A stretch of DNA of 32,000 nucleotides from Candidatus Thorarchaeota archaeon (lineage in GTDB: Archaea; Asgardarchaeota; Heimdallarchaeia; Hodarchaeales; Hodarchaeaceae). Of the stretch, positions 11,856 through 15,877 are shown piece by piece. The stretch spans positions 3,540 through 35,539 of the forward strand of contig JBHLRO010000030.1 in assembly GCA_048882505.1 (NCBI GenBank), in the 5' to 3' direction. The position numbers and the translations under genes were made by a program. A model generated the notes under the pieces. The model saw only the letters and a program-made list of their open reading frames with translations. It was not told the origin of the DNA and did not search any database. How positions within the stretch are numbered: the stretch's first letter is position 1; each line of letters begins with the position of its first letter.

Positions 11856-11929
11856 GGGCCGGTGGTCTAGCTCGGTATGACGGCTCCCTCACACGGAGCA
11901 GGTCGATGGTTCAAATCCGTCCCGGCCCA
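11856..11929 (+). tRNA. tRNA-Val (anticodon CAC), intronless, CCA not encoded
   Basis: Acceptor GGGCCGG/CCGGCCC plus discriminator A; D arm GTCT...TGAC; anticodon arm GCTCC-CTCACAC-GGAGC; T arm GATGG-TTCAAAT-CCGTC; T-rich tail follows. Confidence 0.97.
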
Positions 11930-15444: not shown

Positions 15445-15483
15445 GCGAAAATTTTTAAAGACTCTTAGAACCGCCTTTAATTG
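15445..15483 (+). promoter_or_regulatory. Candidate BRE/TATA elements for the permuted 5S transcript
   Basis: GCGAAAA-TTTTTAAAG at 15445-15460 and TTTAATTG at 15476-15483. Either places the TSS upstream of the 5' arm of the processing stem (15517). Confidence 0.3.
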
Positions 15484-15537
15484 AATCTAAAGGTACAGAA
15501 TCTCACGTTGTATCATGACATCGAGATCCTGCCGGAA

Positions 15538-15686
15538 GTTAAGCCGAGTTTCGTTCTGATCTGTACTGTTATGCGCGAGCTTACGGGAACATCAGAAAAC
15601 GGGTATTGCCCGTTCATAGGGCTCGAGTAACACCCGGTCTCATTCCGAAAGATATGAAGGAATTTCTTCATTCCGGGAACCCGGAA
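15538..15686 (+). rRNA. rrf: 5S rRNA gene, circularly permuted and intron-containing
   Basis: 15538-15603 is the 5S 3' half (GTTAAG CCGAGTT TCG TTCTGAT CTGTAC...GC-GCGA-GC...GGGAAC ATCAGAA AACGGG). 15604-15608 is the linker TATTG. 15609-15649 is the 5' half (CCCGTT CATAG GGCTCGAG TAACA CCCGG TCTCATTCCGAA). 15650-15679 is an intron and 15680-15686 is CCCGGAA. Helices I (CCCGTT/AACGGG), II, III and V (TTCTGAT/ATCAGAA), loop E and the GCGA tetraloop are all recoverable. Confidence 0.93.
15650..15679 (+). other. 30-nt archaeal BHB/BHL-type intron in 5S rRNA loop C
   Basis: Central helix UCCG(15644-47)/CGGG(15674-77), bulges AA|A (15648-50) and AA|C (15678-80), intron hairpin GA-U-AUGAAGG-AAUU-UCUUCAU-UC. 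Removal restores CAUUCCGAACCCGG. Confidence 0.85.
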
Positions 15687-15877
15687 ACAGGATCCTCATG
15701 TCCATTTACTTGGATATTAGGGATGTGGAGAGTATGTTGTTTTTAGAATAGACATCGAAGGTTTTCCCCAAGGACCAATGTCCATATTCGTGATTTTTAA
15801 TGTATATGAATCGATTCTTATCAAAGGAATGAAAAAGCAGATTCAAAATCATTTCAGTTTTGGTTGGGACTGTTATA

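Follow-up and report, generated by a model that had tools for sequence, protein, structure and literature searches.

A locus on the plus strand of the window, the 32,000-nt stretch of Asgard DNA of Heimdall/Hod type that was analyzed, has the sequence expected of a circularly permuted, intron-bearing 5S rRNA gene that is encoded back to front. We consider it probable that this permuted gene carries a recent bulge-helix-bulge (BHB) intron, that the ends of its transcript are joined first, and that the change of pairing partner made by one of its CCGG words is a by-product of the permutation breakpoint. In such a gene, one helix strand of a core ribosomal RNA would serve first in a cut site and later in the mature fold.

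The gene reads, in order, leader, the 3' two-thirds of 5S, a 3-nt helix I cap, the 5' third, a 30-nt insert, the heptamer CCCGGAA, and trailer. In the 4.3-Mb, 94.5%-complete assembly, the sole 5S-like place lies at 15504-15604 and scored 20.3 bits with Rfam RF00001 at relaxed thresholds; the gathering threshold of this family is 38 bits, and the 20.3 bits were obtained with the permuted genomic order. At the gathering score, a search of the whole window returned only tRNA-Val and no 5S, with RF00001 falling short of its threshold. This tRNA-Val(CAC) gene, at 11856-11929, is 65% G+C and intronless. The 3' part of 5S (helix II 3' strand, helices IV/V, and helix I 3' strand) occupies 15538-15604, corresponding to Rfam positions ~52-120, as judged from the 20.3-bit match and from alignment of the rearranged sequence. 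It is followed at 15605-15607 by a small loop that caps helix I at the place of the normal 5S ends, an assignment based on the predicted fold and on covariation of helix I in relatives. The 5' part (helix I 5' strand, loop A, helix II, helix III 5' strand, and loop C) spans 15608-15649, as placed by alignment to canonical 5S and by the Rfam alignment of an intronless relative (L008). The unit may be bounded by a promoter-like A/T box, TTTTTAAAGACTCTTAGAA (15452-15470), ~70 nt upstream of the first predicted cut site, and by a T5 run at 15740-15744 that could act as an archaeal terminator. The word TTTAAAG.CTCTTGAA was found at an equal distance upstream in genus relatives.

When the gene was rearranged in silico by joining 15649 to 15680 and 15686 to 15538, the resulting 119-nt RNA could be aligned over its full length to 7 canonical Asgard 5S rRNAs (53-67% identity), and both junctions were gapless. 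The product adopted a 5S fold with helices I-V in RNAfold, and the probability of helix III was 0.96-0.99. Base for base, the predicted product is the sequence of the intronless relatives, and it agrees with canonical Asgard 5S at the junctions; the 15686-to-15538 junction reads ...CCCGGAAGUUAAGCC, the same as in the canonical genes.

The first-pass annotation had pointed to three copies of CCGG, at 15532-35 (copy 1), 15634-37 (copy 2), and 15681-84 (copy 3). All three positions were confirmed, but the total was not: a fourth copy, at 15673-76, had gone uncounted although it was used as the 5' arm of a proposed hairpin. The hairpin, UUCCGG-GAAC-CCGGAA (15671-15686), does exist, with a start that had been given off by one; its GAAC loop is closed by 5 bp with U15672-A15685 and by 6 bp with U15671-A15686. 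Copy 2 (15634-15637) is the helix III 5' strand, and the Rfam consensus structure has it paired with copy 3. In the Rfam alignment of L008, copy 2 falls at positions 29-32 and copy 3 at positions 46-49, both in helix III, and the AA after copy 3 is the conserved bulge at positions 50-51, placing the permutation breakpoint between positions 51 and 52. Four copies of CCGG in 153 nt compare with ~0.2 expected (window rate, 41 per 32 kb), and the word is scarce across the window (41 observed versus 76 expected from shuffles). Function accounts for this local enrichment, and we do not count it as independent signal. A palindromic helix III (CCGG/CCGG) and a breakpoint two bases 3' of it explain the triple CCGG: the complement of copy 3 is then also CCGG. 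As read from the sequences compared, three identical words arise solely in lineages whose helix III is the palindrome CCGG.

We found no description of a permuted archaeal 5S gene and no intron in 5S rRNA in the literature searched. The 5S genes of circular Heimdallarchaeum genomes were not predictable in the hands of Wu et al. 2022 (PMC8813620), and the permuted layout would account for that report.

Predicted terminal and intron BHB motifs

BHB motifs are cut after the second bulge base. At the termini, copy 1 (15532-15535) would form the leader strand of a 4-bp central helix with copy 3 (15681-15684), flanked by the opposite 3-nt bulges AAG (15536-15538) and AAA (15685-15687). Beyond these bulges lies an outer processing helix in which the leader strand GAUCCUG (15525-15531) pairs with the trailer strand CAGGAUC (15688-15694); it had P >0.9 in the fold, and its two strands covary in relatives. 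The BHB was the MFE structure of the isolated duplex, at -17.2 kcal/mol, and the CCGG-AAA-outer-helix layout recurs in relatives. The predicted cuts fall between 15537 and 15538 and between 15686 and 15687, and copy 1 would leave with the leader. No inner helix was found between the segments that begin at 15539 and end at 15680, and the strict hBHBh' form was thus not obtained. From its sequence, we class the terminal motif as a relaxed (BHL-like) BHB.

In other relatives, ...CAUUCCGAA is followed directly by CCCGGAA and, across the cut site, by A, and 30 nt are inserted between both parts here. The insert was present in 2 of 22 genus genomes (G000 and G016) and absent in 20 of 22, and the two versions differ by one base, in the hairpin loop. 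Removal of the insert restores the sequence of the relatives exactly. It is best read, from this distribution, as an intron that was a recent gain within the genus. In the sister genome G016, the 5S gene is split between two contig ends (L025 at the end of C27; L041/L083 at the end of C32) that overlap by 82 identical bases, indicating an assembly break inside the gene.

The predicted intron (15650-15679) has boundaries that are exact relative to the relatives, folds into a hairpin of its own (15654-60 with 15665-71), and interrupts the helix III 3' strand between Rfam positions 44 and 45. Pairing of UCCG (15644-47) with CGGG (15674-77) was the sole register in which a 4-bp central helix is combined with cuts that fall on the insert boundaries. 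Its bulges are AAA (15648-50), which completes the 5' side of the motif at 15644-15650, and AAC (15678-80), and its intron helix is ~9 bp. These features fit a BHB, with predicted cuts between 15649 and 15650 and between 15679 and 15680. Shuffled inserts reached this register-exact arrangement in 0.2% of trials, and an isolated 37-mer of the motif had the BHB as its MFE structure (-8.8 kcal/mol). The intron BHB is relaxed as well, its exon-side helix being displaced by a 6-nt loop. Copy 4 (15673-15676) is intronic; it overlaps the CGGG strand and, by word count and fold, forms the local hairpin with copy 3. All cut positions are predictions from the BHB rules and from the exact match of the product. 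Eight nucleotides of the upstream exon (UCAUUCCG, 15640-15647) recur at the end of the insert (15668-15675). The insert can be read as 22 new bases plus the duplicated exon word plus GG, a possible trace of its origin that kept the context of copy 3.

The abutment of the two motifs at C15680 and C15681 and the 7-nt exon between them (15680-15686), both put forward in the first-pass annotation, fit BHB geometry with 4-bp helices and 3-nt bulges. This exon, CCCGGAA, corresponds to Rfam positions 45-51 (a C, the helix III 3' strand, and the AA bulge); it holds copy 3 and takes in the bulge together with the entire proximal 3' strand of helix III. A maturation pathway with such an exon would offer a stringent natural substrate on which to study how exons this short are kept in place by EndA and RtcB. 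The junction of an intron-bearing ring is predicted to read ...UUCCGGGAACCCGGAAGUUAAG. Metagenome scans for the processed junction and for 20-50 nt inserts at the site returned no match.

The genome encodes an EndA alpha protein of 182 aa, with Tyr, His, and Lys as catalytic triad candidates, and an EndA beta protein of 213 aa in which the matching His was not seen. Both carry N- and C-terminal endonuclease domains, and an RtcB gene is also present. Asgard EndA is reported to be an (alpha-beta)2 enzyme with a specificity loop, a type that cuts relaxed motifs (PMC5829648), and the alpha and beta genes are consistent with this enzyme type.

Permuted relatives and their conserved pairings

Weak 5S-type matches were present in 17 of 18 genus genomes, which share the permuted layout, and the same layout was found across the class and in many Asgard families. 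Most sampled Asgard families had twin weak 5S matches (L062-L076 and others; G031-G141) that represent permuted genes; their breakpoint likewise lies after the helix III AA bulge, and their leader-trailer helices are 10 bp. Canonical 5S was found in 39 of the 121 phylum genomes sampled. Class-level sampling of relatives turned up only two canonical 5S genes, both inside the order (L002, G020:C798; L003, G005:C310); they lie beside bacterial 23S rRNA on contigs of 2-3 kb and were set aside as MAG contamination.

Pairs were counted in an alignment (A2) of 24 distinct permuted 5S genes that was built without the window sequence and without the lineages that use a CGUG register, the latter being tabulated instead with a motif-locating script. 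An initial MAFFT alignment (A1) was discarded; it had displaced the insert of the window to its end and combined two different pairing registers. For the outer helix and copy 1/copy 3 together, 92.4% of cells were paired versus 65% in shuffles, and the covariation score was 0.764 versus 0.208, a value reached by 0 of 500 shuffles. Changes on both sides were seen in 10 of 12 pairs overall and in 8 of 8 aligned outer-helix pairs, and the terminal BHB thus shows compensatory pairing in relatives. Helix III (copy 2/copy 3) was 100% paired, with compensatory change in 2 pairs. The pairing of copy 1 with copy 2 behaved otherwise: it was 87.5% paired, equal to shuffles, and had no covariation. Changes in copy 2 were tracked by copy 3 and not by copy 1, and copy 1/copy 2 was unpaired in 6 of the 24 genes.

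By lineage, the script table gave the copy 1/copy 3 word pairs CCGG/CCGG, CUGG/CCGG, CGUG/CACG, and CCGA/UCGG as well as CCGU/ACGG, CUGG/UCAG, and UCCG/CGGA. There are at least 7 complementary word pairs; several relatives have CCGA/CCGG, with one A.C mismatch. In family f3, read directly from the sequences, CAGG or CGGG pairs with CCUG. The proposal that copy 3 must pair with copy 1 in the BHB and with copy 2 in helix III therefore held up: these are exclusive partners, and both helices covary across Asgard relatives. Copy 3 is thus shared by two mutually exclusive conserved helices, as a regulatory switch would require, and its alternation between a processing helix and helix III appears, from these comparisons, to extend far beyond this genome.

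Several variants of the layout were observed among the relatives. Family f14 includes a second permutation type (L077/G089, L089/G074, and L095/G107) in which the gene starts with C-CAUCCGAAC-CCGG-AAGUUAAAC and ends with ...ACCCGGUC; here, the leader CCGG or CUGG pairs in the BHB with copy 2, the helix III 5' strand. Other f14 genomes (L072, L093, and L094) have the copy 3 breakpoint, and it seems that the palindrome lets the breakpoint move. Two f14 genes have ~30-nt inserts in the helix IV/V region (L089:190-225 and L096:35-70, approximate positions), indicating that mini-inserts recur elsewhere in permuted 5S genes. In f3 (L004, L022, L023, and L078), a hairpin stretch of ~30 nt lies between the outer-helix leader strand and copy 1, and a second copy-1-like word, CAGA/GCAG-AAA, adjoins the outer helix; the stretch could belong to a three-way junction or be another segment that is cut out. 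One locus (L030, G020:C510) has a tandem pair of permuted 5S genes, each with its own leader-trailer helix.

Predicted folding and order of maturation

Folding was modeled with RNAfold (ViennaRNA) at 37 °C, and the values given are nearest-neighbour energy estimates, that is, predictions. In the transcript (15515-15705), the outer helix, copy 1/copy 2, and the copy 4/copy 3 hairpin formed together with a joint probability of 0.94 (copy 1/copy 2, P ~0.98; hairpin, P 0.99). The terminal and intron BHB helices had probabilities of 0.004 and 0.003, and forcing them cost +4.0 kcal/mol each and +5.5 kcal/mol for both. The terminal BHB cost +4.2 kcal/mol in linear RNA without the intron; in the model, the intron thus has neither a masking nor a stabilizing effect on it. 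Most genus relatives likewise favored copy 1/copy 2 in their folds. The MFE fold, with copy 1/copy 2 and the hairpin, was examined for an alternative BHB, and none was found. Since both BHBs had probabilities <0.01 in the primary transcript, cutting must involve refolding or capture, a step that the model lacks. The covariation of the terminal BHB shows that it must form in cells, although the model rates it rare.

In the ring, with the ends joined and the intron kept, helix III had a predicted probability of 0.84 and the intron BHB helix 0.65, the two co-occurring at 0.56, and the hairpin fell to 0.06; the intron BHB cost +0.25 kcal/mol. A run in which helix III and the intron BHB were enforced in the ring gave +6.14 kcal/mol. 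It contradicts the pair probabilities and the 0.56 obtained by sampling, and we rejected it as a circular-constraint artefact. The first-pass annotation had held that helix III is impossible before both cuts. The model does not support this claim: the copy 1/copy 2 surrogate is predicted in uncut RNA, and the true helix III would predominate after end-joining alone. Both reactions are needed only to make the helix III 3' strand and loop C covalently continuous, which is trivially true.

These data suggest the following pathway. The (alpha-beta)2 splicing endonuclease would cut at the two terminal sites, and copy 3 would then shift from copy 1 to copy 2, placing A15686 beside G15538 at the helix III AA bulge, where RtcB would close the RNA into a ring by ligation. 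In this ring, helix III would form along with the intron BHB and serve as the exon-side helix of the intron motif, and a second round of cutting and joining would excise 15650-15679 to yield a 119-nt ring. In this model, the ends are probably joined before the intron is removed, because the intron BHB is rare in linear RNA and favored in the ring and because the terminal duplex is more stable in isolation (-17.2 versus -8.8 kcal/mol). The departure of copy 3 from copy 1 probably matters mechanically: since the terminal motif has no inner helix, only helix III could align A15686 and G15538 after cutting. On grounds of parsimony, the partner swap is an unavoidable by-product of the breakpoint and not a dedicated regulatory switch, since it is common to intronless relatives.

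A different order, in which the intron leaves the linear transcript first or one compound double BHB undergoes all four cuts, is unlikely. The two BHBs do use different bases and can coexist, the double ensemble lying 1.5 kcal/mol above either single one, and in the double structure copy 3/copy 1 provides a helix directly 3' of the AAC bulge; moreover, the ring of a permuted, intron-bearing tRNA of Cyanidioschyzon merolae was found without its intron (PMC3728597). The predicted probability of the intron BHB, however, is 0.003 in linear RNA versus 0.65 in the ring, the isolated terminal motif is the more stable of the two, and four cuts made before ligation would free a 7-mer held by 4 bp to the discarded leader. 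The first-pass annotation had read the CCGG copies as a selected folding switch that withholds the uL5/uL18 arm until both splicing reactions are complete, a checkpoint on 5S RNP assembly. In its favor, copy 3 has two exclusive conserved partners, loop C and the helix III 3' strand are covalently discontinuous until both ligations, and folding predicts a strong local hairpin of copy 4 with copy 3 in the transcript. Nevertheless, we regard a checkpoint as very improbable. The same arrangement occurs in intronless relatives of many Asgard families, the intron is young (2 of 22 genus genomes), and copy 1 varies (CUGG, CCGA, CGUG, and others), so that three identical words are lineage-specific. 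Copy 1/copy 2 pairing is not conserved, and the model gives a surrogate helix III in the transcript and a true one after the first ligation alone. Finally, no regulator or signal was evident in the sequence or its neighbours, and the change of state follows irreversible cutting. If true, the regulatory reading, which lacks support so far, would have consequences for ribosome assembly in the archaea most closely related to eukaryotes.

Two further proposals take the copies as devices. Copy 1 could be a functional placeholder that forms a surrogate helix III with copy 2, promotes early 5S folding, and hands over at ligation; copy 1/copy 2 is indeed the dominant predicted pairing here and in most of the genus, and the leader CCGGAA, followed across the cut by G, is identical to the mature strand. 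The pairing lacks covariation, is absent from 6 of 24 genes, and cannot form in family f3 and the CGUG-type lineages, making this role highly improbable. In a broader version, the palindrome is an exploited strand-exchange device that combines surrogate pre-folding (with a hand-over to the true strand after cutting and before ligation), breakpoint jumps in evolution, and, in this species and jointly with the intron and the 7-nt exon, a fixed two-round splicing order gating uL5/uL18 binding. This version is suggested by the ability of the leader copy to pair with either helix III strand and, for the jumps, by those f14 genomes in which the partner of the leader copy is copy 2 and not copy 3. 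We judge it to be quite doubtful. Alternatively, the 30-nt insert might not be spliced and might be kept in mature 5S as an expansion of the helix III/loop C arm. Long retained inserts are known in Halococcus 5S rRNA, and the metagenome scans gave no junction match. Retention here is, in our estimate, highly improbable, given a register-exact BHB that arises in 0.2% of shuffles, an insertion that breaks the helix III 3' strand between Rfam positions 44 and 45 and whose 3' end would compete with helix III, and the fact that this is the sole 5S gene in the assembly. The reading that we favor thus remains a permuted 5S gene with a recent BHB intron, ends joined first, and a partner swap that comes with the breakpoint.

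Comparison with known systems

The closest known system is the permuted SRP RNA of Thermoproteus tenax (Plagens et al. 2015, eLife, PMC4731332): the tRNA splicing endonuclease cleaves its transcript, and ligation then yields a functional ring. Both are permuted genes for a structural RNA other than tRNA, and both have termini near a functionally important loop. The present locus differs in encoding 5S rRNA; its breakpoint lies in helix III, where one strand would serve both the cut site and the mature fold, and it has an additional predicted intron, which gives rise to a 7-nt exon.

The permuted, intron-bearing tRNAs of C. merolae also combine a terminal BHB and a BHB intron on one transcript, and they are processed sequentially by way of a ring, in an order tied to the free energy of the motifs (Soma et al. 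2013, PMC3728597; reviewed in PMC3978253). These genes are eukaryotic and encode tRNAs, and their motifs lie far apart and fold independently, whereas the 5S motifs abut and share a 7-nt exon; the tRNA ring is eventually linearized by RNase P and tRNase Z. In C. merolae tRNA-Gly, the intron appeared to be removed first (PMC3728597), opposite to the ends-first order predicted here. Archaeal 16S and 23S rRNAs offer another parallel: EndA cuts a BHB in their leader-trailer helix, the RNA is circularised, and rings can be the mature form (PMC12918454, PMC7758197). The leader-trailer helix with a BHB and the predicted EndA cut and ring are shared with the 5S locus, but the 16S and 23S genes are collinear and the permutation in Pyrococcus is post-transcriptional. 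In the cultures studied, 5S rRNA was not processed by BHB circularisation (PMC12918454). Relaxed BHB introns (hBH, HBh', and BHL; PMC5829648) resemble the motifs described here in their 4-bp helix, 3-nt bulges, and one weak or missing flanking helix, although their substrates are tRNAs and the substrate here is 5S rRNA. The two-step maturation proposed for this locus, with its 7-nt exon, lends itself to testing; what is new relative to known permuted genes is the 5S rRNA itself, the breakpoint inside a helix, the abutting motifs, and the 7-nt exon.
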